Below are positions 3,132-59,097 of a stretch of DNA of 59,110 bases, piece by piece. The notes below the pieces were generated by a model that was not told the origin of the DNA, searched no databases, and was given only the letters and a program-made list of their open reading frames with translations. Position 1 is the stretch's first letter. Every line of letters starts with the position of its first letter. This stretch comes from a virus (lineage: Duplodnaviria > Caudoviricetes), in the IMG/VR virus record IMGVR_UViG_3300033551_000005, positions 1 through 59,110 of that record, one strand, 5' to 3'. Position numbers and translations under genes: made by a program.

Positions 3132-3178
3132 GTTGTGCTGACATACGTAACATTAGCATCGGTGCCAGCACGGCACAA
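3132..3178 (-). promoter_or_regulatory. Conserved promoter/operator/leader element, copy 1
   Basis: TTGTGC-N17-TAATGT-TACGTATGTCAGCACAAC. Confidence 0.85.
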
Positions 3179-7694: not shown

Positions 7695-8463
7695 CGAACG
7701 TCTCCACGCCCAGCGCCTCGTCGATCGGGTCGACGTCGGCCTGCTCCAGTTCGGCGGGCGGCTGCACGTCGGAGAACTCCTGCGCCAGCCAGATCTGCAC
7801 GGCGCCCGCGTTGTTGTCGACGCCGTAGCGCTCGCGCAGCGCACGGAGCCGCGCCTGGATGGTCGGGTACTCGCTGATCGCGTAGTCGAGCACCACGAGG
7901 CGCCGCCCCTCGGCCGCGTACTTGCTCGCCGCCTCGCGGCCCTCCTCGGCCGTGTTCTTGAGCGGCACGGACTTCTCCGTGACGGTGGGCGCGGGCTCCT
8001 CGGCCAGTTCCTCCAGCCGAGCCCGCAGGTCGTCGGTGTCGGTCTCGGTGAAGCCGACGCCCTCGTAGTCGTCGAGGCCGTCGAGCAGGTCCAGCAGCGC
8101 GTCGTCCACCCAGCCGCCGAGTTCGGTGCTGCGGTTCAGGGCGATCAGCGCGGCGCGCGCCTCCGCGTCGGTGCGGCTCGCCCATCCGACGACGACCGGC
8201 ACCAGCCAGTGGCCGCCCGCGTCCACGCGGACGCCGTCGGGCGCGTTCTCGCCCCGGTCGCGCATGGCGGTCAGCGTCTCGTGGCGGCCGTGGCCCGAGA
8301 TGATGTAGCCCGTGCGGTCGTCGCGGACGATCTGGTCGATCACGCCGAACCGGCCGATCGACGCGTCGATGGTCTCCACGCTGTGGCTCTTGGGGTTGGC
8401 CGGGTCAGCGAGCAGGTGATCGAGCGGGATGTACTCGGTGCGGCGGGGAGCGGTCTCGGTCAT
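7687..8463 (-). CDS. ParB/Srx N-terminal-domain protein
   Basis: DPANPKSH..I.ASIGRFG.....IISGHGRHETL...ALIALNR. Confidence 0.8.
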   Translation of the reverse strand: MTETAPRRTEYIPLDHLLADPANPKSHSVETIDASIGRFGVIDQIVRDDRTGYIISGHGRHETLTAMRDRGENAPDGVRVDAGGHWLVPVVVGWASRTDAEARAALIALNRSTELGGWVDDALLDLLDGLDDYEGVGFTETDTDDLRARLEELAEEPAPTVTEKSVPLKNTAEEGREAASKYAAEGRRLVVLDYAISEYPTIQARLRALRERYGVDNNAGAVQIWLAQEFSDVQPPAELEQADVDPIDEALGVETFDA

Positions 8464-9143
8464 CAGTTGCCTCCGTAGATGGTGGCCGCCCGGTCGGGTC
8501 GGCCGCTGGTGTTCTTGCCGTGCCAGTGCCACGTCCAGGTCCGCTCGGGCAGGTGCTCGAACTTGGCCCCGGCGGCGAGCAGGCGCTGCCACAGGCCCCA
8601 GTCCTCGCAGTCTGCGTGGGGCCACTCCGGGCTGTTGGTCTGCGGGAACCCGCCGACGGCGACGAACAGGCTCGTGCGCACGAGCGCCGTGACCGGGATG
8701 TAGTTGTTCGCCTGGAGTGCAGACGCGCTGAACGGCTGCCCGAACGCGGGGCGGCCGTCGATGAGCAGCAGGTTGTCGCCCCGCTCGTTGGCCGGACGGC
8801 CCCCGGCCATCAGGTCGAACCAGGGGTAGACGACGTCGGCGCCGGTGGCCTCGGCGTGCGCGAGCAACTTGCCGACGTGCCCCGGCTGGAACTCGTCGTC
8901 GTCGTCGAGGAACGCGATGAACTCCGGGTCGCCCCCGGCGTTCAGGGTGTTCAGCACAGCGAGGTTCCGGCAGTAGGCGGGGCCGCGCCCCATGTGGTCC
9001 GTCTCGATCGCTCCAGCGACGAGCAGGTCCTCCTCACGGATGGACTTCACGGCCCGCTTGAGCAGGTCCTCGCGGCCGGTGATGGTCGGGATGACGATGA
9101 GCACGCGCGCGTCCTGGATGCGCAGTTCCTTCGCGGCGCCCAT
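8463..9143 (-). CDS. Glycosyltransferase family 2
   Basis: IVIPT..GR...GPAYCRN...FIAFLDDDDEF...VGGF...EDWGLW. Confidence 0.85.
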   Translation of the reverse strand: MGAAKELRIQDARVLIVIPTITGREDLLKRAVKSIREEDLLVAGAIETDHMGRGPAYCRNLAVLNTLNAGGDPEFIAFLDDDDEFQPGHVGKLLAHAEATGADVVYPWFDLMAGGRPANERGDNLLLIDGRPAFGQPFSASALQANNYIPVTALVRTSLFVAVGGFPQTNSPEWPHADCEDWGLWQRLLAAGAKFEHLPERTWTWHWHGKNTSGRPDRAATIYGGN

Positions 9144-14506: not shown

Positions 14507-14534
14507 GTTGTGCTGACGTACGTAACATTAGCAC
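14507..14534 (-). promoter_or_regulatory. Conserved promoter/operator/leader element, copy 2
   Basis: GTGCTAATGTTACGTACGTCAGCACAAC; preceded by a hairpin at 14541-14577. Confidence 0.85.
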
Positions 14535-15864: not shown

Positions 15865-15890
15865 TTTGTGCTGACATGCGTCACCCTACA
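15865..15890 (-). promoter_or_regulatory. Variant conserved element
   Basis: TAGGGT-GACGCATGTCAGCACAAA. Confidence 0.65.
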
Positions 15891-17293: not shown

Positions 17294-17321
17294 GTTGTGC
17301 TGACATACGTAACATACACTA
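17294..17321 (-). promoter_or_regulatory. Conserved promoter/operator/leader element, copy 3
   Basis: TAGTGTATGTTACGTATGTCAGCACAAC. Confidence 0.8.
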
Positions 17322-17583: not shown

Positions 17584-18504
17584 TCACACCTTCCCGTCGT
17601 TGAGCCGCCGCTGGAGCGCCATGATGGCGCGCGACTCTCGCGAGAGTACGCCGTCGACCGGGGTCCCCAGGTGGCGCTGGAGGTCGCGGATCGTGTCCGG
17701 CCCCAGGATGCCGTCCGGGTACGAGCCCAGCCGGTTCTGGAGCGCCGCGATGACGCGGCTGCCCTTCGGCCGGGCCTCCCACACCCAGCCCGTGGTGAGC
17801 CCCGGGTTGCTCGCCTTGTACGCGCGGTTCTGCGAGGACACGACGCCGTCCCGCGTGGTGCCGAGCACCTTCTGGAGGCGCCGGGTCGTGGTGCCGCCCC
17901 AGAACCCGTCGACCGTGAGGTCGCCCTTCGGCGTGCTCGGCTTCGGCGGGGTGATGGGGTTGTCCACCTCCTCGGCGCCGTCGTCGGTGCGGTACTCGCC
18001 CCGGTTGATGTCGTCGATCAGGTCGTAGGCGTACCGGCCGGGGCACGCCGTCGAGGCACCGGGGGCGTCCCTGTGCCCGCCTGTGAGACGCGCACGCTTC
18101 CACCACCCTCGGGTGACGCCGAGCCGCAGCAGGCCGTCCACGGCCTCCAGCATCGGCCGAGGCGGGGTCGCCTTGTCGTAGTTGCCGACGAGCACGATGT
18201 TCGCCGTCGGCGTGTTGTAGCCCGCGATGGCGGCGCCGACGCGGTCGATGGACAGGCCCTCGAACACGAGCCCGGCCGGGGTGATGGGGAAGTGGTACGA
18301 GATGCCCTTGCCGAACCGGCTCTGGCCGATGGACTCCAGCGTGCGGATGGCTGCGTAGTCGTCCGTGAAAGGCGGCAGCAGGTCGGGGGCGATCGTCACC
18401 GAGTGGTGCAGGTAGACGTCCAGGTCACCGACCGTGCGCAGCCCGAACCCGTTGCCGTACCGCGCGCCCCACTCGGCGCGCGTGATGATGTCGGGGGTGC
18501 TCAT
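17584..18504 (-). CDS. Endolysin: N-acetylmuramoyl-L-alanine amidase with peptidoglycan-binding repeats
   Basis: ITRAEWGA, YLHHS, ISYHF, GHRD....STACPG; C-terminal VDGFWG/DGILGPDT..LQ repeats. Confidence 0.9.
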   Translation of the reverse strand: MSTPDIITRAEWGARYGNGFGLRTVGDLDVYLHHSVTIAPDLLPPFTDDYAAIRTLESIGQSRFGKGISYHFPITPAGLVFEGLSIDRVGAAIAGYNTPTANIVLVGNYDKATPPRPMLEAVDGLLRLGVTRGWWKRARLTGGHRDAPGASTACPGRYAYDLIDDINRGEYRTDDGAEEVDNPITPPKPSTPKGDLTVDGFWGGTTTRRLQKVLGTTRDGVVSSQNRAYKASNPGLTTGWVWEARPKGSRVIAALQNRLGSYPDGILGPDTIRDLQRHLGTPVDGVLSRESRAIMALQRRLNDGKV

Positions 18505-19688: not shown

Positions 19689-19735
19689 GTTGTGCTGACG
19701 TACGTAACATTAGCATCATCTGTAAGGCAGGGCAA
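19689..19735 (-). promoter_or_regulatory. Conserved promoter/operator/leader element, copy 4
   Basis: TTGCCC-N17-TAATGT-TACGTACGTCAGCACAAC. Confidence 0.85.
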
Positions 19736-21798: not shown

Positions 21799-21888
21799 GG
21801 TGTCCTCCTCGATTGGGTGGTGCGTTGTGCTGACGTGCCCCGGCTAGGTCGTGAACCTGCGCCGCCTACGCGGTGCCGGGGCGGCCGG

Positions 21889-22152
21889 TCAGTTGACCGG
21901 GATGATCGGGAACGCCGCGCCCTTCTCGGTGAGCCGGTAGGCGTCGTGGCCCGGCTTGTCGCCGCACCACTCGATGAGGCCGTAGTTCCGCATCAGGGTG
22001 TGAGCGTGGGTCGCGGCCGACTGGTGCATCCGGGCCACCCGGGCGATGTTCTTCCGCGAGATGTAGCCGGGGTTCATCAGGCGGGCCGCCGCGAACGCCT
22101 TGGCGAGGCTCGGGGTGATCTTGTGACCCTGGATGCGAAGCGTGGTAGCCAT
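21889..22152 (-). CDS. Putative winged-HTH protein
   Basis: ISRKNIARVARMHQSAA...LMRNYGLIEW...YRLTEKG. Confidence 0.6.
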   Translation of the reverse strand: MATTLRIQGHKITPSLAKAFAAARLMNPGYISRKNIARVARMHQSAATHAHTLMRNYGLIEWCGDKPGHDAYRLTEKGAAFPIIPVN

Positions 22153-22176
22153 CGTGACCTCCTGGTTTGGTGCTCT

Positions 22177-22222
22177 GTTGTGCTGACATACGTAACATTA
22201 GCACACCAGCAAGGAGGGGCAA
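22177..22222 (-). promoter_or_regulatory. Conserved promoter/operator/leader element, copy 5
   Basis: TTGCCC-N16-TAATGT-TACGTATGTCAGCACAAC. Confidence 0.85.
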
Positions 22223-22244
22223 CACGAAACATGTTACGGTTGTG

Positions 22245-22559
22245 TTACGGCTCCGGCAGGTAGCCCAGCGTCTCGGCCACCGAGAGCACGACGGCGCCGA
22301 CGCCGCCCGCCGCCCGCAGGTCCGCGAGGCGCTTCTGCTGGCGGATCGTCGCCCGGCCGTACGCGTGCTCGGTGCTCTCACCGAGCCGCTGCTTCTTCAC
22401 CTCGAAGCCGTAGATCCGGCCGTCGATGACGACGACGAGGTCGGGCAGCCCGGCGGCCTGGTACGGCCCGCCGTGGATCTTGGTGATCATCGCGCTCGGG
22501 TGCCGCTTCTTGATCGCCCGCGTGATCTGCCCCACGAGCAGGGTCTCCGGCTGTGCCAC
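22245..22559 (-). CDS. VRR-Nuc domain nuclease (resolvase-like)
   Basis: KIHGGPYQAAGLPDL....GFEVK...Q...L..AGG. Confidence 0.85.
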   Translation of the reverse strand: MAQPETLLVGQITRAIKKRHPSAMITKIHGGPYQAAGLPDLVVVIDGRIYGFEVKKQRLGESTEHAYGRATIRQQKRLADLRAAGGVGAVVLSVAETLGYLPEP

Positions 22560-22643
22560 GAGTCCTCCTGGATACGAGAGTGGCCCGCCCCGGAGTGAGT
22601 GCGGGGCGGGCCGTGCGGCAGCCGGTGAAGGGCGACCGTCGCG

Positions 22644-22714
22644 AGGCGCTGGCGGGAGTTGAACCCGCTTGTCCGGCTTTGCAGGCCGTTCCCTGGCCGT
22701 TCGGGCACAGCGCC
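22644..22714 (-). tRNA. tRNA-Cys(GCA)
   Basis: GGCGCTG acceptor stem, CT-GCA-AA anticodon loop, GGTTCAACTCC T-arm, U discriminator; CCA not encoded. Confidence 0.85.
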
Positions 22715-22715
22715 T

Positions 22716-22790
22716 TGGCTCCCCACGCAGGACTTGAACCTGCAATACCTGGGTAACAACCAGGCGTGTTGCCAATTACACCAGCGGGGA
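22716..22790 (-). tRNA. tRNA-Asn(GTT)
   Basis: TCCCCGC acceptor stem, CCTGG-TTGTTAC-CCAGG anticodon arm, GGTTCAAGTCC, GCCA end. Confidence 0.9.
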
Positions 22791-22794
22791 AAGC

Positions 22795-22965
22795 GCGTCC
22801 CCGGGAGCGCGGCCGTCCGGCCGAACCCCCGGGAACACTTCCCGCCGCTCATCGCGGCGGGCGGGGTGCCTGGTGTCGGTGAAGTCACCAGGCGGGGTGC
22901 TGAGCCGGGGAGCACCACAGAGGTTGAGTGTCAGCACAACCACCCGCTCTACCCAGCCCAGCCGT
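22795..22965 (-). ncRNA. Candidate structured RNA upstream of the tRNA pair
   Basis: About five consecutive hairpins in a non-coding gap; contains GTTGTGCTGACA, antisense to the conserved leader. Confidence 0.4.
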
Positions 22966-22977
22966 CATGACCCTACC

Positions 22978-23613
22978 TCAGAGGTTGATGTCCGCCAGAG
23001 ACAGGGTCTCCGGCTCCTCCTTGGCGGGGACGGTGGTGGGCGCCGGTGCGGCGGCCGTGCGCACACGGTCCGCCACGGTGGCCTCGCCGCCGGTCGTGAA
23101 CTCCTTCACGACCTCCGCCGGGGCGTCCTCGACGACGGCGGCCTGCACCGGCTCGGCGACGGCCTCGGGCACGTCCTCGACCATCTGCTCCAGCACCGGC
23201 ACGTCGGCCGGGGCGTCCTCGGCCTCCGGCGCGATGTAGCGAGCGTAGCCGTCGATCTGCGACGTGCCGGGGCGGCCCCGGTACGGCTCGGCGTGGCTCG
23301 TGTCGATGTAGACCTTGCGGTTCTTCCACGCCTCGGGGTTGATGCTGAGGCGCTTCTTCGGCGTGGGCATGCCCAGGCCGTTGAGGAAGCCGACGATCTT
23401 GAAGAGCGCCTTCGGCGTGATGGCGAGCCGGTCGATGATGACCTTGCCGCTCTCCGGCCCCTCGATGATGCGGAGGAAGACGGTGAACATGTCGTTCTGC
23501 GACTTGCTCTTGCCGAACTCGTAGTCCTCGACGATCGCGAGGTAGCGCGCGTCCGCGACCGTGTCCGAGATGTTCGGGCGGTAGCCGGACAGGTCCAGGG
23601 TGTACTGACCCAT
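22978..23613 (-). CDS. DUF669-like ssDNA-binding protein
   Basis: YLAIVEDYE.GKSKSQNDMFTV.LRIIEGPESG...ALFKIVGFL; acidic tail; follows the AAA ATPase. Confidence 0.7.
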   Translation of the reverse strand: MGQYTLDLSGYRPNISDTVADARYLAIVEDYEFGKSKSQNDMFTVFLRIIEGPESGKVIIDRLAITPKALFKIVGFLNGLGMPTPKKRLSINPEAWKNRKVYIDTSHAEPYRGRPGTSQIDGYARYIAPEAEDAPADVPVLEQMVEDVPEAVAEPVQAAVVEDAPAEVVKEFTTGGEATVADRVRTAAAPAPTTVPAKEEPETLSLADINL

Positions 23614-23652
23614 GTGGGTTTCTCTTTTCTGTGCTGTTTTGTTGCGGTTTGG

Positions 23653-24495
23653 TTACTTGCTCGCGGCCTTGACCGTGGGCATGCCGCCGATGCCGAGCGT
23701 GGTCCCGAGGGACACGAGCGACAGCGGGGCCTTCCGGCCGAGCACGGGCGGGATACGGCCGTGCAGGTGCGCCGGGACGCGCGCCTTGATGCGGTACTCG
23801 ACGTCGTTGCCGAAGCGGGCGACGTGGCGCTCGGCCGGGTTGCCCTCCTCGTCGGTGTTGTCGTAGTCCTTCTCCGCCTCGCAGAACATGACGTAGTCGG
23901 GCGAGGCGAGCGTGATCGACTGCGCGCCGCGCTGGACGTCGACCGTCCGCGTGGTCGTGTTGTTGATCTCGTCCTCGGTGATCTTCGTCTGCGCCGTCAG
24001 GATGACGTGCATGGGGTTCGCACGCTCCGCGTCCGCGAGGCTGTACCAGAACGTCGGGATGTCCGACATGATGTCGAGCGCCTGCCCCCAGGTGCGCTGG
24101 TCGGCCGGGGCGACGCCCTGACCAATCTCGCGGACGGCCGTCTCGCTGTGGCCGAGGAGGAACCGCATCGTCATCTTCTGGACGCCGGTCAGGCTGTCCA
24201 GGACGACCGCCTTGAAGCCGCCCTCACCCCGGTCCAGGGCGTAGAACAGTTCGTCCAACTGCTTGATGGACTTGGGGCGGACGACGGTGATGTTCTTCGC
24301 CCACGGCGTGCCGAGGAACGACCGGGGGCCGCGCTCGCCTCGCATGTCGACGAAGATCGTCTTGCCGACCTGGGCGATGGTGCTCGCCAGGTACGACTTG
24401 CCCGAGCCCTGGCTGCCGTGCAGCAGGAACCGGCCGTAGTCGTCACCGATCTGGTCGGTGCCGTACAGGGTCAGCCCTGCGATCGTGTTGCTCAA
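23653..24495 (-). CDS. AAA_24 / Sak4-like recombination ATPase
   Basis: FLLHGSQGSGKS, VVLDSLT, HVILTAQ. Confidence 0.85.
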   Translation of the reverse strand: MSNTIAGLTLYGTDQIGDDYGRFLLHGSQGSGKSYLASTIAQVGKTIFVDMRGERGPRSFLGTPWAKNITVVRPKSIKQLDELFYALDRGEGGFKAVVLDSLTGVQKMTMRFLLGHSETAVREIGQGVAPADQRTWGQALDIMSDIPTFWYSLADAERANPMHVILTAQTKITEDEINNTTTRTVDVQRGAQSITLASPDYVMFCEAEKDYDNTDEEGNPAERHVARFGNDVEYRIKARVPAHLHGRIPPVLGRKAPLSLVSLGTTLGIGGMPTVKAASK

Positions 24496-24804: not shown

Positions 24805-25938
24805 CTACGCCTTCACGGCGAGGCCGTAGCCCGAGGGCTCCAGCCGCTGGTTCGTGCGCATCTCGTCGAGGCAGAGCATCACGAAGTCGCAGCCCTTGCA
24901 GCCGTTGCGCGAGAGGTTCCGCGCGATCGGCCCCAGGCTCGGGTCGTCGAACCGGCGGCGAGCCTCGGCCTGCCCCTCGGCCGTGGCGACGGCCTCCTGG
25001 AGGTGGCCCCGGATGATGCGCGGGTTCACCGGGTCGAGCGTGCGCCGGTTCCACTTGTCGCGCTCCGACGGCGTGCTCAACTTCTCGATGACCTTCGGGT
25101 CGCGCTCGTAGAAGCCCGCGCCGCTGCCGTCCTTCTTGAGCCCCGGGAACGGCACCGGCTCCTCGGTGAACGCGAGGTAGGCCGCGACGTCGTAGTCCGT
25201 GACGGACGCCGACAACTTGCCTGCCTTGGTGACGGCGGGCTGCGCGGCGGGCTTCGAGCGGGCGCGGTCGTAGCCGACGGCCCCCACGTTGATGCCCAAC
25301 TGCACCGACACGCCCCAGGCGTAGAGGTGCAACTGCGAGTCGAGCAGGTCGTCCAGCGACTCGGCCGCCGCGATGGTGCCGTTCGTCTTGTGGTCGCGGA
25401 CGACGATCAGGCCCAGGCGCTTGTCGCGGTAGACCTCGTCGACTCGGCCCCGGAGCACGACGCCGGAGTCCGCGATCGGCACCTCCACGAACACCTCGAC
25501 CGCGATCACCTCCTCGTTCTCGCGGGACTCCGCGCCCCACGCCTCCTCCCACCGAGCGTCCATCTCGACGAGGTGCGGCACGAGCGGGGCGCCGGTCTTC
25601 TCGATCCACTGCTCCTGCCGGGTGAGGTTCAGGCTGTTCCAGAACGACTCGGCGGCGGCGAAGACATGCGCCTTCTGGAGGTGCGGGCCGACCGACAGTT
25701 CCGGCCCCATGTCGCCCGTGCTGATCTTGTCGGGCAGGTACAGCGGCGCGGCCTCCTGCGACCGGCTGCGGGCGATGGCGTCGGCGGCGCGCAGCGCGTG
25801 CCACCACGAGCCGAGTTCGCGAGTGATGAGCGGCTGCACCCCGGCGGGCCGGAGGCGCCGCAGGGTGGAGAACTCGAACTTCTTGGGGCACGCTCGGTAG
25901 GTGCCCAGGCTGCTGGGCGAGACGGTGATCGGGGGCAT
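24805..25938 (-). CDS. Cas4-like PD-(D/E)xK exonuclease
   Basis: SPSSLGTYRACP, GRVDEVY...VRDHKT, QLHLYA, C..C.F..LC. Confidence 0.9.
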   Translation of the reverse strand: MPPITVSPSSLGTYRACPKKFEFSTLRRLRPAGVQPLITRELGSWWHALRAADAIARSRSQEAAPLYLPDKISTGDMGPELSVGPHLQKAHVFAAAESFWNSLNLTRQEQWIEKTGAPLVPHLVEMDARWEEAWGAESRENEEVIAVEVFVEVPIADSGVVLRGRVDEVYRDKRLGLIVVRDHKTNGTIAAAESLDDLLDSQLHLYAWGVSVQLGINVGAVGYDRARSKPAAQPAVTKAGKLSASVTDYDVAAYLAFTEEPVPFPGLKKDGSGAGFYERDPKVIEKLSTPSERDKWNRRTLDPVNPRIIRGHLQEAVATAEGQAEARRRFDDPSLGPIARNLSRNGCKGCDFVMLCLDEMRTNQRLEPSGYGLAVKA

Positions 25939-25959
25939 GGGGCTCCTCGGTTCGGGGTC

Positions 25960-26018
25960 GTTCTTCGTTCATCACTCACCCACCCCTTACGGGGAGGGGT
26001 GAGTGATGAACGAAGAAC
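25960..26018. repeat. Dispersed long hairpin family, copy B
   Basis: GTTCTTCGTTCATCACTCACCC-ACCCCTTACGGGGA-GGGGTGAGTGATGAACGAAGAAC. Confidence 0.85.
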
Positions 26019-26260
26019 ACGACTAGGTGAGATGGCGGTCTGACCTGCGGGGTAGGGTGCGTGAACCGCTCCACCCTGCGGGCCGTTGCCCCGGGTTGCT
26101 GGGGCGTGTGTTTACTAATGTATCATGTGCTCGGCCCGGCAATGGGCCTCGGTGAAAGGAACCACATGACCCATGAAATGCCGAAGGGCCGCGCCCCCAG
26201 ACGCGGCCCTTCACGTAACAGCAACCCCACCCCGACCGGCACTGACGAGAGGACGGCGGG

Positions 26261-28462
26261 ATGAACCTCGGCCCTGAGGGTACCACCGCAAGCGCAGTTG
26301 AGGCATACGAACGTGGGTATGTCCCGGTACCCGTACGACCCGGCACGAAGCGCCCCTTCGACTCGAACTGGACGGACCTCCGGTACGAGTCCGCCGAGCA
26401 GGTGCGCAGCCTGTTCGAGCAGGAGCCGTCCAATCTGGGGATCGCGCTCGGCGCGCCGTCGGGCGGCCTGGTGGACGTCGACCTCGACCACACGAAGGCG
26501 CTCACGGCGGCGCAGGTGTTCCTCCGGGGGACGACGACGGCAGTCAGCGGGCGCATGTCCCGGCCCGGCTCGCACTACTGGTACCGGGTGGCCGACGACC
26601 TGCCCGAGACCACGCGCCGCTACATGCACCCGGACCGCAAGCGGGACGACCGCGTGCTGGTGGAACTGCGGTCCACCGGCGGGCAGACCGTCATCGCCCC
26701 CTCGGTGCACCCCGACGGCGAGCGGTACGCCTGGGACGACGAGCCGTGGGGCGGCGAGAGCGGCCCCGCGCTCATCGGCGGCGGCGAACTGCGCAGCCGG
26801 GTCGGGGCGCTCGCGCTCTCGACGCTGCTCGCCATCGAGTGGCCCACGCGCGGCGGCCGTCACGACGCCTACCTGGCGCTCGCTGGCGCCCTGCTGGCGG
26901 AGGGCTACGGCGACACGCGCCGGGTGTCCCCCGTGTGGAAGAACCTCGCCCCCGGGGTCATCGCCGTGATCGCGCAGGCCACCCACGACGAGGAGGGGAT
27001 GCAGACCCGGATCGACCAGTCGGTCGAGTCGACCCTCCAGAAGATCGCCAAGGGGAAGCCGACGCAGGGTTGGCCCACCCTCGCCGAGCACCTGTCCGAC
27101 GACGTCGTGCAGGCGTGCAAGGACTTCGTGTTCGGCGTCGAGGAAGCCGAGGGCCACACCCGGCCGCTGACGGTGCCCGACGAGGACGCGTACGACCCGT
27201 ACACGGACGCGCAGGTCTACAGCGATGCCCCGGCCCCCATGCTCGAACTCGACCTCTCAGGCGACGCCGAGGAGGACGAGGACGAGCCGGGCGGCGAGGA
27301 CGAGCAGCGCCTCATGGCGTTCGAGCGCATGGTCCAGCACGAACTGCTCCGGATGGAGGTGCGGGAGGAAGCCGGGCAGCGGTACCGCGCCGCCCAGGAG
27401 CCGGAGGACAGCGAGCCGCTGGTCCGGCTCGTGTCCGAGGTGCTGGAGGCCGAGCCGGAGAAGCAGCCGCGCATCGAGCGCGTGCTCCCCTGGGACAGCA
27501 CGCTGTGGCTGTCGGCGCAGCGGAAGACCGGCAAGACGACGCTGCTCGTCAACCTGGCGCACTCGCTGCTCACCGGGGAGAAGTTCCTCGGGGAGTGCGC
27601 CGTCGTCCCGCTGGAGCCGCACGAGCGCGTGGGGATGCTCAACTTCGAGGTGACCCCGGCCAAGGCGGCAGCCATGTTCTCGCGGCGCGGCGTCGCCCCG
27701 GATCGCGTCGTGCAGGTGGACCTGCGCGGCCGGGCGAACCCGTTCCACAACGCGAAGCAACTCCGGGCACTTGGTGAGCAGTTGAAGGCGCTGAACGTGC
27801 GGTCCATCTTCATCGACACGTTCAGCCACGCCTTCACCGGCGACAGCCAGAACGACGCGACGCAGGTCCGCGCGTGGATTCGGCAGGTCAACCAGTGGGC
27901 TCGGCTCGTGGTGGGGGCGACGGACCTCATCGTCACCGACCACGCGGGCTGGTCCGACAACGCTCGGGCGTCCGGCTCGTCGGCGAAGGAAGCCGACGCG
28001 GACCACATCATGCACCTGATGATCAGCGACCCGAAGGACCAGAACTCGGTCCGGCACATCCGGACGTTCGGCCGCACGGACGACCTCGTGAAGGGCGAAC
28101 TGCTGCTGGACAAGGACACCGAGACCGTGACATATCGGGAGATTGACCAGGCGGAGAAGCAGGCCGCCCGCGCCGACCAGGCGCTGGCGGACATGAGCCG
28201 GGCGGAGGACGCGATCCGGCTCGCGCTCATGGAGGCCACCGAGCCGCTGCGGGCGCAGGAACTGTGCGACCTGGCGGGCGAGACGGACCTCGGCGGGCCG
28301 CTGAGCAACCGGGCGCTGGACCAGGCCCGGCAGCGGCTCGTGACGCTCGGGGAGATTCAGACGACCCGGGGCACCGGCCGGGGAACGCCGCTGCTGCACG
28401 CGCTCAACCCCGACTACGTGCCGGACTACCCGCCGGAAGAGGAAGAGCCCGGTTCGGAGTAG
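26261..28462 (+). CDS. Bifunctional primase-polymerase fused to an AAA_25/RepA-like helicase
   Basis: N-terminal PVRPGTKRP...NLGIALG...LVDVDLD...SHYWY...APSVHPDG; C-terminal AQRKTGKT, IFIDT, TDHAG, ASGSSA. An RBS-led 32-aa ORF (26166-26264) overlaps the start. Confidence 0.9.
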   Translation: MNLGPEGTTASAVEAYERGYVPVPVRPGTKRPFDSNWTDLRYESAEQVRSLFEQEPSNLGIALGAPSGGLVDVDLDHTKALTAAQVFLRGTTTAVSGRMSRPGSHYWYRVADDLPETTRRYMHPDRKRDDRVLVELRSTGGQTVIAPSVHPDGERYAWDDEPWGGESGPALIGGGELRSRVGALALSTLLAIEWPTRGGRHDAYLALAGALLAEGYGDTRRVSPVWKNLAPGVIAVIAQATHDEEGMQTRIDQSVESTLQKIAKGKPTQGWPTLAEHLSDDVVQACKDFVFGVEEAEGHTRPLTVPDEDAYDPYTDAQVYSDAPAPMLELDLSGDAEEDEDEPGGEDEQRLMAFERMVQHELLRMEVREEAGQRYRAAQEPEDSEPLVRLVSEVLEAEPEKQPRIERVLPWDSTLWLSAQRKTGKTTLLVNLAHSLLTGEKFLGECAVVPLEPHERVGMLNFEVTPAKAAAMFSRRGVAPDRVVQVDLRGRANPFHNAKQLRALGEQLKALNVRSIFIDTFSHAFTGDSQNDATQVRAWIRQVNQWARLVVGATDLIVTDHAGWSDNARASGSSAKEADADHIMHLMISDPKDQNSVRHIRTFGRTDDLVKGELLLDKDTETVTYREIDQAEKQAARADQALADMSRAEDAIRLALMEATEPLRAQELCDLAGETDLGGPLSNRALDQARQRLVTLGEIQTTRGTGRGTPLLHALNPDYVPDYPPEEEEPGSE

Positions 28463-28573: not shown

Positions 28574-30202
28574 ATGCCCCTGGATTTCAGACCGCGAGGT
28601 GAGGCGCGCTACGCCCATCAGAAGCGGGTCCTCCGCCGGATCATCGAGACGCGCGGCGTGTGCGCGCTGCTGTGCGACCCCGGCACCGGCAAGACGGCGT
28701 CCGTCGTCGACTACTCCAGCGCGCTCGCGCTCAAGATGGGGCGGCCGGTGCGCGTGCTCGTGCTCGCTCCGCTCGTCGCCCTGGACTCGTGGGTCGGCCA
28801 GACGGCGAAGTACGCCGCGCACGGCGTGGGCGTCTGGGCCGAGGCGCTCGGCGGCTCCGTCGCGCAGCGCGCCGAGGTGCTGGCGGCGCGCGGCCCGCAC
28901 CGGTCCGACGCCCGCACCGGCGCCCGCCGGTCGATCGCCTGGGCCGGGATGAACTCGGACGGGTACCGCTACCGCGACAACACGGTCGGCCGGGTGGACC
29001 TGTGGCGCGACATCACCACGAGCGGCGACCCGGCGATCGTGCTCCAGGTGCTCGGGCTGGACTCGCTGAGCCAGCGCCGCGAGGTGAGCAAGACGAAGAC
29101 GGTGGCCGACGTGCTGCACAAGGCGATCGAGCGGTTCTCGCCCGACGTGCTCGTGATCGACGAGAGCCACCGCATCAAGAGCCCGAGCGCGAACGTCAGC
29201 CGGACGGCGGCCCGCCTGTCCCGGCTCGCGCCCCGGCGGCTGATCCTGACCGGCACGGTGATGCCGCACAGCCCGATGGACGTGTGGGCGCAGTGGCGGT
29301 TCCTGGAGCCGATGGCGTTCAACGAGCCCGACCCGAAGCGGCCCGGCCAGACCAAGCCGATGCCGTTCGGCCGGTTCGAGGAGCGCTACGGCGTGTTCGG
29401 CGGGTGGCAGGGGCGGCAGGTGGTCGGGTACCAGAACCTGGGCGAGATGCAGCAGGTGATGGCCCAGAACAGCATCGTCGTCCGCAAGGAGGACGCGCTG
29501 GACCTGCCGGAGACCGTCGACATCACGGTGCCGGTGCATCTGTCGGCCCGCGAGGAGGGCGCCTACGTCCAGATGCACGGGCAGTTGGCCGTCGCCCTGG
29601 CGAACGGCAGCCTCGCGACCGTGCCGAACCGGCTCGCACAAATGATGCGCCTGCGGCAGATCACGTCCGGCTACCTGCCCGACGACACGGGCGTGATGCA
29701 GCGCGTCGGGGACAGCAAGGCGGCGGCCGTACGTGGCGTCGTGTGCGACACGCTCGCCGGGGAGAGCCGGGTCGTGGTGTTCGCGCACTTCCGGCAGGAG
29801 ATTACGGACATCGTCGCGGCGATCGGCAAGGCGGAGGGCAAGGAGACCGTCATCGTGCAGATCACCGGGGACACCCCGCCGAAGGAGCGCGAGGCGATCC
29901 GGAAGCGGTTCGGCTCCGACGAGGCGGTCCGCCTGATCCTCGTGGCGCAGATGCGCACGCTGTCGCTCGCGGTCAACGAACTGGTGACCGCGTCGCACGC
30001 CGTGTACGCCTCGCTGAGCGAGCGCCGGGACGACTGGGTGCAGTCCCGCGACCGGCTGCACCGGATCGGCCAGAAGCGCTCCGTGACGTTCTGGAACGTG
30101 CTCGTGCCGAACAGCGTGGACGACGCCATCTACAAGGCGCACCTGACGCGCGAGTCCGTCGAGAACGCCGTGCTCCAGCACATCGAGGCCACCCCGCAGT
30201 GA
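28574..30202 (+). CDS. SNF2-family DNA helicase
   Basis: DPGTGKT, DESH, LTGT, QSRDRLHRIGQ; start at MPLDF after GAAGGA. Confidence 0.9.
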   Translation: MPLDFRPRGEARYAHQKRVLRRIIETRGVCALLCDPGTGKTASVVDYSSALALKMGRPVRVLVLAPLVALDSWVGQTAKYAAHGVGVWAEALGGSVAQRAEVLAARGPHRSDARTGARRSIAWAGMNSDGYRYRDNTVGRVDLWRDITTSGDPAIVLQVLGLDSLSQRREVSKTKTVADVLHKAIERFSPDVLVIDESHRIKSPSANVSRTAARLSRLAPRRLILTGTVMPHSPMDVWAQWRFLEPMAFNEPDPKRPGQTKPMPFGRFEERYGVFGGWQGRQVVGYQNLGEMQQVMAQNSIVVRKEDALDLPETVDITVPVHLSAREEGAYVQMHGQLAVALANGSLATVPNRLAQMMRLRQITSGYLPDDTGVMQRVGDSKAAAVRGVVCDTLAGESRVVVFAHFRQEITDIVAAIGKAEGKETVIVQITGDTPPKEREAIRKRFGSDEAVRLILVAQMRTLSLAVNELVTASHAVYASLSERRDDWVQSRDRLHRIGQKRSVTFWNVLVPNSVDDAIYKAHLTRESVENAVLQHIEATPQ

Positions 30203-30241: not shown

Positions 30242-30288
30242 TTGCACGGCCCGGTGGGCGATGCTAATGTTACGTATGTCAGCACAGC
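30242..30288 (+). promoter_or_regulatory. Conserved promoter/operator/leader element, copy 6
   Basis: TTGCAC-N17-TAATGT-TACGTATGTCAGCACAGC; an inverted repeat at 30210-30245 overlaps the -35. Confidence 0.85.
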
Positions 30289-31620: not shown

Positions 31621-33624
31621 ATGCAGCCCGACCCCTTTACCAAGGGCGACCTGTTCGACGTGACCCGCGTCGCGTGGATCAGGGACGTGGACGAAATCGA
31701 CACGCTCGTCCGCGAGATTGCCCGCTACCCGTACATCACCTGGGACCTGGAGAACACCGGTCTCGACGAGCACGCCTACGAGGGCGGCCCGACCAACGGC
31801 GGCATCGCGGCGCGCATCACGCTGCTGTCGCTCACGCTGGCGAAGTCCCTCGACGACATGGACCCGGTGACGTGGCTCGTGCCGCTGTCGCACAAGGGGG
31901 CGTCCCTGTTCCCGCAGTGGGCCGAGGTGATGACCCGCATCGCGGAGGCGCTGCGCGACTCGGGCGCCGACCTCACGGCGCACAACGGCCGGTACGACTG
32001 CCGGTGGGTGTTCGCGCACACCGGCATCGACCTGGTGCCGTTCCTGACCTGGGACACGATGATCGTGGAGCACCTGCTCGACGAGAACACCAGCACCCGG
32101 CTCAAGGTCCGGGCGCCCCGCCGGTTCGACGTGCCGTCGTGGGCTGACGTCGACCTCTCGACGCCCGGCGCCGCCGAGCGGACGCCGCTGCTCGAACTCG
32201 GCTACTACGCCGCGCGCGACACGTACTGGACGTGGCGGCTGCGCATGGTGCAGCAGCGCGAACTGTGGCTCATGGATGACGACGAGGTGACCGGCCACGA
32301 GGACGCCGACGAGCGCGAGATGATCCGGCTCGGCAGCCTCGCGGAGTTCTGCGTCATGCCGCTGGCCCGCAACCTGGCCGCCGTCGAGCAGCGCGGGTTC
32401 CGGCTGGACCAGGAGTGGGTCGCTCGCACCCTCGCTGAGGTCGATGGCATCGTCTCTGCCGCGTCCGCAGACCTGGTCGGGTTGTTCACCCCGACGGACG
32501 ACCTGCGGGCCGCTGACGTCTCCTGGGCGCCCACGAGCAACTGGTTCCGGGCGTGGGCCGACCAGCAGGTCGAGGCGAAGCGGCTCCGCATCGACTCGAT
32601 GACGAAGAACGGCCGCCCGCAGTGGAACGGCGCCGTGCTCAAGCGGCAGACCCGCGAGGGCAACCCCGTGGCTGAGCGCCTGCTCGCGCTGCGTCAGGCC
32701 GCGAAGAAGGCCGAGTTCCTGCGCTCGTGGCAGGAACTCGTCACCCGGGACTCTCGTATCCACGCGTCTTACAACGTGGGCCGGGTGAGCACCGGCCGCC
32801 TGTCGTCGAGCGAGCCGAACCTCCAGCAGGTGACGAAGACGCTCAAGCCTGCCTTCGTGCCGGACCCCGGGCACCTCGTGGTCGAAATCGACTACAGCCA
32901 GATCGAACTCCGGGCCGCCGCGTTCATCGCGCGGTGCGAGCCGATGATCGAGGCGTACCAGCGCGGCGACGACCTGCACCGGCTCATGGCTGCGCAGATC
33001 ACCGGCAAGGCGCCCGCCGACGTGACGCCAGACGAGCGCCAGCGGGCCAAGGCGTCCAACTTCGGACTGCTCTACATGCAGACCCCCGAGGGCTTCCAGA
33101 CGTACGCCGAGACGGCCTATGGCGTGATCCTCACGCTGGAGCAGGCGTACGAGTCCTACAACGCGTTCTTCTCGCTGTGGGACGGCATGGCGCAGTGGCA
33201 CCAGCAGATCATCAACACGGTGACCCACGACGGCCAGGTGGTGTCCCCGCTCGGGCGGGTGCGGCGCGTGCCCAACGCCCTGACAGGCGACCCGTACCTG
33301 GTGAGCGAGGCGGCCCGGCAGGCGTGCAACGCCCCGGTCCAGTCGTTCGCCTCGGACATCATGCAGATGGTCGCGGCGGACATCTCGGGCGTCTACGGCA
33401 ACCCGGTGCCGGACGTGCAGATGGTCTCCACCGTGCACGACTCGATCGTGCTCCAGGTGCCCGCCGACGACTGGAAGCGGGCCGTCGGCCGGACGATGCA
33501 CCGGATGATCCGCCCTCACCACCTGCTGCGCCCGCTCGGGTGCGACCTGGACGTGCCGCTCGCCGTCGAGGCCACGGTGGGCACGCGGTGGGGCGCCGGG
33601 GACGTAGCGATCGTCACCTCGTGA
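31621..33624 (+). CDS. polA: DNA polymerase family A with 3'-5' exonuclease
   Basis: WDLENTG, HNGRYD, YAARD, TGRLSSSEPNLQQ, DYSQIELR, RQRAKASNFGLLY, TVHDSI. Confidence 0.95.
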   Translation: MQPDPFTKGDLFDVTRVAWIRDVDEIDTLVREIARYPYITWDLENTGLDEHAYEGGPTNGGIAARITLLSLTLAKSLDDMDPVTWLVPLSHKGASLFPQWAEVMTRIAEALRDSGADLTAHNGRYDCRWVFAHTGIDLVPFLTWDTMIVEHLLDENTSTRLKVRAPRRFDVPSWADVDLSTPGAAERTPLLELGYYAARDTYWTWRLRMVQQRELWLMDDDEVTGHEDADEREMIRLGSLAEFCVMPLARNLAAVEQRGFRLDQEWVARTLAEVDGIVSAASADLVGLFTPTDDLRAADVSWAPTSNWFRAWADQQVEAKRLRIDSMTKNGRPQWNGAVLKRQTREGNPVAERLLALRQAAKKAEFLRSWQELVTRDSRIHASYNVGRVSTGRLSSSEPNLQQVTKTLKPAFVPDPGHLVVEIDYSQIELRAAAFIARCEPMIEAYQRGDDLHRLMAAQITGKAPADVTPDERQRAKASNFGLLYMQTPEGFQTYAETAYGVILTLEQAYESYNAFFSLWDGMAQWHQQIINTVTHDGQVVSPLGRVRRVPNALTGDPYLVSEAARQACNAPVQSFASDIMQMVAADISGVYGNPVPDVQMVSTVHDSIVLQVPADDWKRAVGRTMHRMIRPHHLLRPLGCDLDVPLAVEATVGTRWGAGDVAIVTS

Positions 33625-33669: not shown

Positions 33670-34005
33670 ATGGCAGCCAACGGCAAGGGGCGCGCGATCC
33701 GCGTCCCGGAGGCCCTGTGGACGGCGGCCAAGGCGAAGGCAGACGAGCGCGGGGCGAAGAGCCTCGGCGCAGCGATCCGGGAGTTCCTGGAGGCCTACGT
33801 GAAGTCGACCCGCCCTGCGGTCAAGGACGGCGTCGGCGTGATGCGAGCCCGCAGCGGCGCAGCCCAGCGCGAGGTGCACACGTTCTACGTGTCGGACACG
33901 CTCTGGAACGAGGCACACGAGAAGGCAGAGAGCGTCGGCGAGACGCTGTCGGCCGCTATCCTCACGTACCTCATCGCGTACGCAGGCTCGAACTACGAGG
34001 ACTGA
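33670..34005 (+). CDS. Tandem ribbon-helix-helix DNA-binding protein
   Basis: Two repeats: RAIRVPEALWTAAKAKA...SLGAAIREFLEAY and HTFYVSDTLWNEAHEKA...TLSAAILTYLIAY. Upstream TACCCT plus TACATATGTA palindrome (33639-33648). Confidence 0.75.
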   Translation: MAANGKGRAIRVPEALWTAAKAKADERGAKSLGAAIREFLEAYVKSTRPAVKDGVGVMRARSGAAQREVHTFYVSDTLWNEAHEKAESVGETLSAAILTYLIAYAGSNYED

Positions 34006-34646: not shown

Positions 34647-34675
34647 GATGCTAGTGTTACGTATGTCAGCACAAC
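34647..34675 (+). promoter_or_regulatory. Conserved promoter/operator/leader element, copy 7
   Basis: GATGC-TAGTGT-TACGTATGTCAGCACAAC. Confidence 0.85.
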
Positions 34676-37213: not shown

Positions 37214-38277
37214 AGGTCGCAGTAATCCCCTCCGACACGGGAGCGTGCGGATACTTCCGTCTCATCTGGCCCGCCGAGGCGGTCCGTAGCGTCCGGCCCG
37301 AGTGGACCGTGAACGTTTACCGACCGCAGGACGTGAAGGTCGGCTACGGCCCGAACGGGCTCGCCGTGCAGGGCCTGGACGTTACCGACCTGGACCTTGC
37401 CGTTTTCCAGCGGGTCGGAACCGCACGGCAGGTCGAACTCGTCCGCGCCCTCCAGGCGGGCGGGATCGGGGTCGCCATCGACGTGGACGACGCGCTCTAC
37501 TGCATCGACCCGGACAGCGGCTCGTTCCCGGCCTGGAACCACAGCCGCAGCACGACGCACTGGTCGAACCTGGAGGAGGCGTGCAAGAAGGCCGACCTGG
37601 TGACCGTGACGACGGACGCGCTCGCGCGGCACTACGCGCGGCACGCTCGCGTCGAGCGCATCCCGAACGGGCTGCCGGACCGCGCCTACGTCGAGCCGAG
37701 CCCGCTCGCTGCGCTCACCGACGCCGTGACCATCGGCTGGTCCGGGGTGGCCCCCTCGCACCCGCACGATCTGGAGGTCGTGGGGACGGCCCTGGCGGAC
37801 GTTCTCGCCGAGGACCGCGAGGTCTACGTCAAGATCGTGGGCGACGGCCTGTGGGCCGCTGACGTCCTCCAGGTGCCGAGCGAGCGGCTGGTCAACAAGG
37901 ACCGCGTGCCGCTGTACGACTACCACGAGGCGCTGGCCGGGACCGACATCGGTATCGTGCCGCTGGCCGACACGAAGTTCAACGAGGCGAAGTCGAGCCT
38001 CAAGGCGCTGGAGTACATGGGCGTCGGCGCCCGCGTGATCGCGAGCCCGACCCCGGCCAACATCGAACTCAGCCTCGACACCGGCATGAGCATCGCCAAG
38101 ACGCCCGAGGCGTGGGCGACCGCGCTCCGGATGGAGATTGCCCGCGTGCGCACCGACCGCGCCGAGGGCACGGTGGGCGGCCCGTCCGTCCGCCACCTGA
38201 GCATCCTCGGAAGGGCCGAGGAGTGGGCCACCGCGTGGGAGCGCGCGGCGGCTCGGCGTAAGAACCTGACCAAGTAG
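37210..38277 (+). CDS. GT-B fold glycosyltransferase
   Basis: GACGYFRL..P, DVDD, ADLVTVTT, IGWSG..SH..DL, DIGIVPL....FNEAKSSLKALEY...IASP. Confidence 0.85.
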   Translation: MKVAVIPSDTGACGYFRLIWPAEAVRSVRPEWTVNVYRPQDVKVGYGPNGLAVQGLDVTDLDLAVFQRVGTARQVELVRALQAGGIGVAIDVDDALYCIDPDSGSFPAWNHSRSTTHWSNLEEACKKADLVTVTTDALARHYARHARVERIPNGLPDRAYVEPSPLAALTDAVTIGWSGVAPSHPHDLEVVGTALADVLAEDREVYVKIVGDGLWAADVLQVPSERLVNKDRVPLYDYHEALAGTDIGIVPLADTKFNEAKSSLKALEYMGVGARVIASPTPANIELSLDTGMSIAKTPEAWATALRMEIARVRTDRAEGTVGGPSVRHLSILGRAEEWATAWERAAARRKNLTK

Positions 38278-47379: not shown

Positions 47380-47427
47380 TTGTTCGTCGCGCTTACTGAT
47401 GCTAATGTTACGTACGTCAGCACAAAC
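47380..47427 (+). promoter_or_regulatory. Conserved promoter/operator/leader element, copy 8
   Basis: TTGTTC-N17-TAATGT-TACGTACGTCAGCACAAAC. Confidence 0.85.
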
Positions 47428-55014: not shown

Positions 55015-55154
55015 GGGGTCCTCCTGGTATCGGGGTGGGTTGCTGTGCTGACTTGCGTCACCTGCTCCGGACTTGCACCGGGGGCGCCTACGCGCTGCGG
55101 GTGGTGACCCTGACGGGGCCTGGTGGATTCCCAAAGCCAGGCCCCGCCGGGAAC

Positions 55155-55689: not shown

Positions 55690-55736
55690 GTTGTGCTGAC
55701 ATACGTAACATTAGCGTCCCGGCTCGGGCCGCGCAA
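55690..55736 (-). promoter_or_regulatory. Conserved promoter/operator/leader element, copy 9
   Basis: TTGCGC-N17-TAATGT-TACGTATGTCAGCACAAC. Confidence 0.85.
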
Positions 55737-58645: not shown

Positions 58646-59097
58646 GAGCGCACCTCCGGCAGAGGAACGCCGAGCCGGGCCGCGAGCCAGTACCGCAGCG
58701 ACACGGCGTCGTGCTCCAGCCCCCGCTCCAGCAGCAGGCGGACGTACTCGTTGAGCGAGGCGCTGACGTCCTCGGCCGCGATACCGAGGGCGTCGGACCG
58801 GCGCGACGCGAGCAGCGCGGGAAGCACGTCCCACGCCGTTTCGAGCGTGCGGGCTACGTCCTTGGGGTCGGGCCGCCACTGCGTGTGCGCGACGTGCCAC
58901 GGCCGCCCGTCGAACTCCTTGAAGCGTGACCGAGGCTGCCGGACGATCTTGCGCCCGAGCGCGTCGAGCGCCTTGATGACGAGCACGTCGCACACGTCGA
59001 GCAGCGCCGAGCGCTCCGCCGTCGCGGGCAGCGACCAGGCGCCGCACGCGGGGCACGGCGCGACGGGTGCCGTGCCGGTGGGGATGGTGGTGGTCAC
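58642..59097 (-). CDS. Hypothetical protein downstream of portal
   Basis: GTG start overlapping the portal TGA; CAGGAGG RBS at 59104-59110. Confidence 0.7.
   Translation of the reverse strand: MTTTIPTGTAPVAPCPACGAWSLPATAERSALLDVCDVLVIKALDALGRKIVRQPRSRFKEFDGRPWHVAHTQWRPDPKDVARTLETAWDVLPALLASRRSDALGIAAEDVSASLNEYVRLLLERGLEHDAVSLRYWLAARLGVPLPEVRS

Follow-up and report, generated by a model that had tools for sequence, protein, structure and literature searches.

What does a single reversed copy of a phage's most repeated motif do in the gap between a protein gene and a tRNA gene? We address this question in IMG/VR virus record IMGVR_UViG_3300033551_000005 (Duplodnaviria; Caudoviricetes), the whole of which (59,110 bp) is referred to as the window. 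The 12-nt motif TGTCAGCACAAC, here called the tag, heads most operons of this genome, and one further copy lies in the opposite orientation between a gene for an SSB-like protein and tRNA-Asn, within a series of hairpins. As judged from sequence comparison, we see an even chance that this gap encodes, on the minus strand, a regulatory RNA that would present the complement of the tag (an anti-tag RNA). The locus is arranged as follows.

22978..23613, minus strand: SSB-like/DUF669-like gene, an open reading frame (ORF) placed last among the protein genes of the exonuclease - Sak4 - SSB-like operon
22929..22940, plus strand: antisense tag copy TGTCAGCACAAC, which reads GUUGUGCUGACA on the minus-strand RNA
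22716..22790, minus strand: tRNA-Asn (GTT), called by ARAGORN and by Rfam RF00005 (59.3 bits)
22643..22714, minus strand: tRNA-Cys (GCA), called by ARAGORN and by Rfam RF00005 (53.1 bits)
22245..22559, minus strand: HNH-like endonuclease gene (phrog_93, E 1.5e-10)

The folded element begins directly 3' of the SSB-like stop codon. Both flanking tRNAs pass the RF00005 gathering score, with cloverleaf and anticodon, and the gap itself contains no tRNA match.

We analyzed the distribution of the tag, which is the most repeated motif of the genome by 11-mer count. With up to one mismatch the window contains 11 matches, where 0.18 are expected, and none of 100 shuffled sequences reached this number. 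Allowing two mismatches yields 13 matches, of which 12 are in sense orientation to the local genes.

3132..3143, minus strand: sense tag with the TTGnnn-17-TAATGT-TACGTA promoter, in the operon leading to the portal gene
14507..14518, minus strand: sense tag with promoter
15865..15876, minus strand: sense tag with variant -10 TAGGGT (the tenth promoter-borne copy)
17294..17305, minus strand: sense tag with promoter
19689..19700, minus strand: sense tag with promoter, in the operon with the DUF932 and endolysin genes
21824..21835, minus strand: sense tag without promoter, with a three-way-junction RNA element just upstream
22177..22188, minus strand: sense tag with promoter, in the first tagged operon downstream of the element
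30277..30288, plus strand: sense tag with promoter, in the operon with the DNA polymerase gene
34664..34675, plus strand: sense tag with promoter
47415..47426, plus strand: sense tag with promoter
55042..55053, minus strand: sense tag without promoter, with a three-way-junction RNA element just upstream, in the operon with the major head gene
55690..55701, minus strand: sense tag with promoter

All 12 sense tags have a GGAGG-like site plus an ATG 7-20 nt downstream, and nine of them stand behind a promoter of the form TTGnnn/GTAGCG - 17 nt - (TG)CTAATGT - TACGTA. Because transcription from TAnnnT-type -10 elements starts 6-8 nt downstream, we infer that the tag forms the extreme 5' end of mRNAs made from the phage's own promoter type. 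The initial annotation had described the motif as an early leader, a term that does not fit a tag heading the operons for the DNA polymerase (30277), DUF932 and the lysis protein endolysin (19700), the portal region (3143) and the major head protein (55053/55701).

The tag promoters, such as that at 22189-22240 (minus strand), carry an extra GTTAYC/TTATCC box located ~8 nt upstream of the -35 element (GTTGC or GTAGCG). The two promoterless tags are preceded by a small three-way-junction RNA (21836-21884 and 55054-55106, both on the minus strand), of which orthologues are found in two related genomes introduced below (G001, ~37245-37297, minus strand; G002, ~23365-23417 and 45253-45305, plus strand). 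This RNA has an outer stem of 7-8 bp (GCCCCGGC/GCCGGGGC or CACCCGC/GCAGGUG), a hairpin CCGC-GUAG-GCGG and a T-arm-like hairpin with loops UUCACGA, UGCAAGU or AUCGAAU, followed by A(CGCA) and then by the tag. The five copies align, their helix changes being compensatory by eye and their two types of outer stem lying one column out of register. The tRNA-like look of the junction suggests processing that could give the tag a new 5' end. The junction elements match no tRNA model, and a weak match to the ffh sRNA family (RF01793) scores 24 bits, compared with a gathering score of 35.

Two operons carry no tag: the exonuclease - Sak4 - SSB-like operon that ends in the gap, and the divergent primase - helicase operon. 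They are served by a separate control region at 25939-26260. In all four genomes that hold the element, no sense tag lies between this divergent control region and the element in the element-bearing operon. The control region contains a palindrome with 27-nt arms at 25960-26018, and its plus-strand promoter has TAATGT (26116-21) followed by ATCATGTGCTCGG where the tag would be. A hairpin in the downstream 5' untranslated region (UTR) differs between the window, G001 and G002 (stems GGCCC/GGGCC, GGCCCC/GGGGCC and GGACGU/ACGUCC), and the stop codon of a 33-codon ORF (26165-26266) overlaps the primase ATG.

Relatives G001-G006 came from scans of IMG/VR with promoter-plus-tag patterns.

G001, 57.6 kb, contains the SSB-like locus
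G002, 46.3 kb, contains the SSB-like locus
G003, 33.9 kb, fragment without the locus
G004, 13.8 kb, fragment without the locus
G005, 58.1 kb, terminal repeats, 100% complete, contains the locus
G006, 8.4 kb, fragment without the locus

The locus lies outside G003, G004 and G006, which are thus uninformative on the element; G003 and G004 contain the same promoter type at 61% G+C, compared with ~70% in the window. A search for related loci with a single protein returned no relatives, and the pattern scan recovered G001 and missed G002, although G002 fits the pattern. Scans with 16-mers of metagenome and genome contigs returned at least 118 and at least 120 stretches, respectively. Among the 265 loci listed, a conserved 33-nt block (up to seven mismatches) pointed to two new loci, L081, a 96-98% variant of G001, and L131, identical to G002; the rest were taken as chance. 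Twenty soil runs from 11 studies contain at least part of this stretch of DNA, eight of them at least half of the sampled words, and contigs from runs X10 and X17 represent a further lineage. Run X17 is labelled metatranscriptomic but was flagged 'probably DNA', and parts not covered by these contigs carry no weight. The SSB-like orthologues are 59% (G001), 54% (G002) and 35% (G005) identical to that of the window.

Among the 13 copies, that at 22929-22940 is the only one antisense to local transcription, here the minus-strand SSB-like/tRNA block. It is preceded by GAGGTTGAG rather than TAATGTTACGTA, with no TAATGT or TACGTA in front, so that its earlier description as the sole opposite copy, lacking the -10 and operator, is borne out. 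Exactly one antisense copy is found 38-94 nt past the SSB-like stop codon in all four relatives with the locus (G001, L081, G002, G005), and it persists though the identity of the flanking protein drops to 35% in G005. Loss of the 12-mer from relatives that keep the leader, which had been named as evidence against an antisense RNA, is thus seen in no relative with the locus. The X10/X17 contigs cover the site as well, and none of the differences listed falls in 22929-22940 or in the nearby TAGGGT hexamer. The next gene downstream of the element is the HNH-like gene in all four genomes holding it, with or without intervening tRNAs. The AAC tail of the leader occurs in eight of 12 copies in the window, six of 12 in G001, six of 11 in G002 and five of nine in G005; these counts omit matches taken as chance coding matches or other features (G001 7991; G002 23752, 32143 and 44679; G003 3207; G005 56152), that at G002 44679 being the -35 region of a promoter at 44704.

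We next consider the fold of the gap. The minus-strand RNA 22791-22980 has a predicted energy of -112.1 kcal/mol (z -3.98), which none of 200 shuffles equalled, compared with -94.3 kcal/mol (z -2.42) for the plus strand. The following structures and signals were delineated.

22899..22962, minus strand: H1, long hairpin of 23 modelled pairs with the anti-tag at its tip (minimum free energy -33.1 kcal/mol)
22922..22941, minus strand: H1 apical hairpin, stem GGUUG/CAACC with the 10-nt loop UGCUGACACU (loop 22927-22936)
22868..22893, minus strand: H2, GCCTGGTG/CACCAGGC, with the conserved loop ACUUCACCGA (loop 22876-22885)
22841..22861, minus strand: H3, CCCGCCGC/GCGGCGGG, lineage-specific (absent in G001, other sequence in X10 and X17)
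22795..22838, minus strand: H4, strong GC hairpin containing CCCGGG/CCCGGG (-37.7 kcal/mol), which ends 4 nt before the tRNA-Asn 5' end
22970..22975, minus strand: TAGGGT, a -10-like hexamer kept in the window, G001 and G002 (overlapping the stop codon in G002) and absent in G005

The five hairpins listed by the initial annotation are all present, and GGTTG/CAACC is the apical stem of H1. The pair GGTGCT/AGCACC exists locally but is not conserved, as this segment pairs with the 5' strand of H1 in the relatives.

H1 is retained in three lineages. Across the window, G001 and G002, 68 of 69 alignment cells pair, compared with at most 58% in controls in which the partner strand was slid by 1-3 columns. 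Three pairs change on both sides (U-A/C-G; C-G/G-U/A-U; C-G/A-U), and seven more change on one side only, in each case by way of G.U. A shuffle control is weak with three sequences, 25 of 500 shuffles reaching the observed value. RNAalifold returns the same fold. The folded strand is the minus strand, because eight G.U cells of H1 would be A.C on the plus strand. Changes in the X10/X17 contigs preserve H1 pairs (G-C to G-U at 22899, U-G to C-G at 22955) or fall in its internal loop (22917, 22918). The structured minus-strand RNA noticed earlier in the gap is thus conserved and covaries, and the core of the antisense 12-mer, then placed partly in a hairpin loop, sits at the tip of H1. The window, G001 and G005 share one and the same apical loop, in place of which G002 has UGCUGACACG. 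Its closing stem becomes AGUG/CACU in G005; 19 of 20 cells are paired, with two compensatory pairs. The surrounding fold of G005 is a Y-shaped junction rather than a long hairpin, and the loop still sits on the covarying stem. A fixed loop on a covarying stem fits presentation of the loop as RNA and would not be expected of a double-stranded DNA site.

H2 folds in all four sequences compared, on stems CCUGGUG, CAGGCGG, CCGGCAG and CGGCAG; its loop is retained, reading ACCACCGA in G001, and G005 has UCACCGGA as a linker at the place matching H2. Conserved loops on variable stems are typical of functional RNA. Just past tRNA-Cys, CCCUUCACCGG (22621-22632, minus strand) nearly matches the H2 loop motif; it is also found in G001 and not in G002.

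At the place of H4 the relatives have unrelated strong hairpins, followed by CACGUUUUAU (G001), UCGUGCUUU (G002) and UUCCUCUGUCC (G005); these H4-like hairpins come with short U runs. H4 may act in a terminator-like manner, or as a 3'-end stabilizer remaining after RNase P cleavage. It does not qualify as an intrinsic terminator (at least five T in eight bases), its tail being GCUU followed by the tRNA, and no minus-strand site of that kind was found in 22200-23700. The TAGGGT hexamer may represent the RNA's own promoter; by eye it has no conserved -35 element, and a 4-nt indel shifts the spacing in G002. A cmscan of the whole window against Rfam at gathering scores yields the two tRNAs only, leaving the gap without a catalogued family. 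A scan of 22500-23100 at E <= 10 gave no C4 (RF01695) or GcvB (RF00022), and its sub-threshold eukaryotic miRNA and IRES matches were taken as chance.

The loop sequence UGCUGACA is the exact complement of UGUCAGCA, which is present in all 12 sense tags. Together with the 5' strand of the stem, it matches the tag over 12 nt in the window, G001 and G002, and over 10 nt in G005. The gap therefore has two properties of base-pairing small RNAs (sRNAs): a non-coding sequence with a covariation-backed secondary structure, and an exposed, conserved seed complementary to leaders that would be its targets, if the tag is transcribed as predicted. A second seed, in the H2 loop, was also considered. The complement of the H2 loop, TCGGTG, occurs near two of 83 predicted start codons, where ~5 are expected. 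Eight nucleotides of the H2 loop are exactly matched by the complementary UCGGUGAA at 26149-26156 (plus strand), which G001 and G002 retain and which immediately precedes AAGGA, the ribosome site of the small ORF in front of the primase gene. It is only a lead for a second target, as 8-mer matches are common by chance; single 8-mer matches number 100, compared with a shuffled mean of 42 and a maximum of 85, and the excess stems mostly from the anti-tag. An excess of TCGGTGAAGT-like matches (11 compared with 2.56 expected) was discarded, the matches being mostly antisense to coding sequence and put down to TTC-ACC codons.

In the mechanism we favor, an RNA of ~170 nt would form the 3' portion of the transcript that covers the exonuclease, Sak4 and SSB-like genes or, alternatively, would start from its own TAGGGT promoter. 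Its 3' end would lie at H4, and in tRNA-bearing lineages a cut by RNase P at tRNA-Asn would set this end; in the window, G001 and G002 the tRNA starts 4-9 nt after H4. RNase P is described as generating tRNA 5' ends in PMC4681348. Release by RNase P, as envisaged in the initial annotation, is possible in the tRNA-bearing lineages but would be lineage-specific, because the G005 element has no tRNA within the surrounding 20 kb. The target operons, at least 12, would be headed by the promoter type TTGnnn-17-TAATGT-TACGTA-TGTCAGCACAAC, and the 5' ends of their mRNAs would fall at the A, U or G directly preceding GUCAGCAC. The H1 tip would display UGCUGACA, the complement of (A)UGUCAGCA at these 5' ends. 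The loop could nucleate on the single-stranded 5' end of a tagged mRNA, and pairing could then spread into the apical stem, for 12 bp in the window and its relatives G001 and G002 and for 10 bp in G005. A single RNA from an untagged operon would in this way reach every tagged mRNA in trans. The one-to-many shut-off of the initial annotation is not supported as such, and the effect could be of either sign. The duplex would end >20 nt before the start codons, which makes it unlikely that the RNA occludes the ribosome site itself. It may instead alter mRNA stability, by shielding the 5' end or by prompting cleavage of the double strand, or mask the C/A-rich leader, which might act as a translation enhancer.

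Several observations weigh against an anti-tag RNA. In G002 the sense strand folds at -101.6 kcal/mol compared with -100.9 for the antisense strand, and in G005 the corresponding values are -118.2 and -124.3 kcal/mol. RNAfold also offers an alternative tip, GUG-CUGA-CAC, or AGUGU-GCUG-ACACU in G005, that buries part of the seed. The mean net pairing energy over the 12 leaders is -6.7 kcal/mol, with shuffled-leader means of -1.2 to -3.8 kcal/mol, and for six of the 12 leaders the best of 10 shuffles is at least equal; the predicted gain is modest because H1 itself is stable. Consensus scans detected no promoter or terminator at the gap, the promoter scan having also missed the phage's own tag promoter at ~22188 within the scanned region. 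The anti-tag core is invariant in all lineages, and because it never varies, co-variation of seed and leader gives no signal. In G005 the stem reads AGUG, leaving UGUCAGCACA (10 nt) complementary to the tag and the last two positions unmatched. With a match of this length and AAC tails about as frequent in G005 as in the window, pairing does not explain the conservation of the GCACAAC tail, which had been ascribed to it. Lastly, the RNA is predicted from DNA sequence, and the soil runs gave contigs, which carry no strand or end information.

Some of these points would be met by a site acting at the DNA level, which we consider unlikely. Here, the tag would be the operator, or part of the promoter recognition sequence, for a phage regulator located at ~-8 to +12 of every promoter. 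The copy at 22929-22940 would be an isolated operator, functional in both orientations, that might serve as a roadblock or as a sink for the regulator, and its position at a hairpin tip would be secondary. The tag does directly follow the -10 element and TACGTA in most promoters, and leader tails are kept even without anti-tag complementarity, as in G005. The isolated G002 copy resembles a promoter upstream of the inferred start (GGTTACGTGTCAGCACAAC compared with GTTACGTATGTCAGCACAAC) and retains GTTACGT there, as would be expected of a DNA operator copy. In the more distant G007 (IMGVR_UViG_3300031088_000019), which has an SSB-like homologue and a different promoter motif, the -10 element is framed by a palindrome (TGTGCTCAT...ATGAGCACA), in which the homologous ATGAGCACA makes up one arm and which has the classic look of a dimer operator; this supports a possible DNA-operator origin of the tag. 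G007 has no antisense copy of the two leader motifs searched, so that the anti-tag device would not be general. A double-stranded site, however, needs no flanking hairpin, yet the closing stem covaries around a fixed loop and the long stem of H1 contains strand-specific G.U pairs. Moreover, the copy is found at the tip of a closing stem whether the fold is a long hairpin (window, G001 and G002) or Y-shaped (G005). TACGTA is missing from the isolated copy of the window, G001 and G005, and a regular dyad partner of the tag is not seen in this phage group: TGCTGAC (up to one mismatch) lies upstream of one of the 12 sense copies of the window, with a background of 7.6%. Promoter spacers are likewise not enriched for such a partner, and matches to GTCAGCAC inside genes were set aside. 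The stoperators of mycobacteriophage L5, a temperate phage, are repressor-binding DNA sites with a short asymmetric motif in many copies, mostly in one orientation. The tag is similar in its many copies and orientation bias (12 of 13 sense to local genes); it differs in that no repressor-operator pair was identified here and in that its odd-orientation copy lies inside a covarying RNA hairpin. G007 itself contains ten promoters with TGTGCTACAGT as the -10 core (such as 7598-7640, plus strand), at least six of them within the palindrome TGTGCTCAT...ATGAGCACA, and the leader end GAGACTCCCGAGGAG at eight places (up to two mismatches).

A structure acting in cis on processing or stability appears similarly improbable. 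H1-H4 would then be the 3' UTR of the SSB-like gene and the 5' leader of the tRNA precursor, providing RNase III/RNase E sites, a 3'-end protector or a partial terminator that sets the ratio of mRNA, tRNA and HNH-like message; the loop would be recognized by a protein or be the relic of a captured promoter piece, without any RNA pairing. The near-perfect H1 helix of ~23 pairs is long enough for RNase III, H4 lies against the 5' end of the tRNA, hairpins beyond H2 differ freely in a spacer-like manner, and the modest energetics of leader pairing are in line with such a role. What it leaves unexplained is why the motif that this genome repeats most often should find its exact complement in the one invariant loop, and why this also holds in G005 without a tRNA and in a different fold. 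Complementarity and conservation are equally accommodated if the H1 loop is bound by abundant tagged 5' ends, or by short abortive transcripts of the tag, so that this very transcript refolds, which could control tRNA maturation or read-through into the HNH-like gene. Alternatively, the RNA might titrate a factor binding the tag region. The element is indeed always directly upstream of the HNH-like gene. Such a sponge or sensor is nevertheless very unlikely in our view: a competing fold that would hinge on pairing of the loop was not found, H1 is stable, and conservation does not extend to the hairpins downstream. Least probable, and in our opinion highly unlikely, is a hairpin of single-stranded DNA used in replication or recombination, for instance as a priming or loading site. 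Such a site would be in keeping with the location inside the replication/recombination module, next to genes for exonuclease, Sak4-like and SSB-like proteins, primase and helicase; G.U (G.T) positions are nevertheless frequent and strand-specific, the region is GC-rich without iterons, and there would be no reason for the loop to mirror a promoter tag.

The genomic setting is that of a siphovirus-like actinophage, by PHROG matches, with 70% G+C and a completeness of 94% (CheckV). The portal gene is cut by the record ends (58642-59097 and 2-1582, minus strand), which indicates that the record is circularly permuted and the genome complete or nearly so. The PHROG matches are located as follows.

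3195-4700: terminase
17584-18504: endolysin
23653-24495, minus-strand block: Sak4-like
24805-25938, minus-strand block: exonuclease
26261-28462: primase
28574-30202: helicase
31621-33624: DNA polymerase
43084-45606: tape measure
50414-51109: major tail
52451-54286: major head

A further feature of the locus is a GC hairpin between tRNA-Cys and the HNH-like gene.

22582..22612, minus strand: GC hairpin, kept in G001 and absent in G002

The SSB-like gene had been labelled DUF669, for which we obtained no Pfam match at E <= 0.01. It matches phrog_3724 (function unknown; E 2.4e-6), and its tblastn matches are to Microbacterium phages, with one GenBank homologue annotated as a single-strand DNA binding protein. 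The closest named phages are also Microbacterium phages, at ~48% capsid identity, and the protein matches are distant; among GenBank phages there is no nucleotide match to 22000-24000 of the window or to the promoter-plus-tag stretch. No integrase is present among the 53 window proteins scanned and no immunity region was seen; the only regulator candidate seen in the PHROG scan is Arc-like (33670-34005). Adjoining genes for queuine tRNA-ribosyltransferase-like (phrog_6059), ParB-like and glycosyltransferase proteins (6750-7382, 7687-8463 and 8463-9104, all on the minus strand) may form a DNA-modification module.

We compared the proposed anti-tag RNA to known base-pairing systems. The c4 RNA of P1/P7 (RF01695) and the CI RNA of P4 are likewise phage RNAs cut from a longer transcript, with loops that pair with phage mRNA. 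They act on sites inside their own immunity operon. Here, the target would instead be a 5' tag common to at least 12 operons, RF01695 gives no match, and G005 has no tRNA or tRNA-like neighbor. That the c4 precursor is an RNase P substrate is stated in the title of Hartmann et al. 1995 (via PMC11143913). By analogy, such phage antisense RNAs cut from longer transcripts, c4 in particular, appear functionally closest to our element. In the IS10 system, the loop of the very stable RNA-OUT hairpin nucleates on the 5' end of RNA-IN and pairing spreads down the stem, a course similar to the one proposed here. RNA-OUT is, however, encoded in cis and fully complementary over ~35 nt to one target, whereas the anti-tag would be encoded in trans and pair over 10-12 nt with many. 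The Hfq-dependent GcvB is an sRNA of the host, transcribed from a promoter of its own. It resembles our element (compare RF00022) in that one seed faces many C/A-rich leaders upstream of the ribosome-binding site. PMC3879156 describes a single G/U-rich seed of GcvB that pairs with C/A-rich leader elements of many mRNAs. In our case, by contrast, the target would be a 5'-terminal tag >20 nt before the start codon, and there is no Rfam match. A tRNA-precursor spacer, 3'ETS-leuZ, base-pairs with other RNAs, according to the account of Lalaouna et al. 2015 given in PMC7213987. That RNA is a 3' spacer that sponges host sRNAs; the present element is located on the 5' side of the tRNAs, is much longer, has more structure and occurs in G005 without any tRNA.

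The timing of phage gene expression is usually put down to proteins, namely repressors, sigma factors, antiterminators and nucleases. The phage base-pairing RNAs known to us act on one or a few sites, and to our knowledge sRNAs of actinobacterial phages, to which this small group of uncultured soil viruses belongs, have hardly been studied. Distinct here are the proposed target, a tag found on most operons, and the placement of the RNA, which closes the only operon without a tag. No such anti-tag case turned up in a search for phage-encoded sRNAs or in a 2025 review (PMC12197685), the main text of which mentions neither leaders, tRNA and RNase P nor actinobacteria, Streptomyces or mycobacteriophages. 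One may tentatively go further, to a genome-wide system in which nearly every operon mRNA is given the same 5' end, (A)UGUCAGCAC, and is read by a single anti-tag RNA, an extension that we regard as possible but doubtful. The common end would be produced by initiation 6-8 nt after TAATGT or, for the promoterless tags, by cleavage beside the tRNA-like junction (21836-21884 and 55054-55106, with the orthologues in G001 and G002). Such a system could serve as a global timer and, because all relatives share the tag, could also use RNA to exclude related phages that superinfect the same cell. Provided that the RNA is produced and the proposed pairing takes place, a single small RNA would affect almost all transcripts of the virus, those of the structural and lysis operons included.

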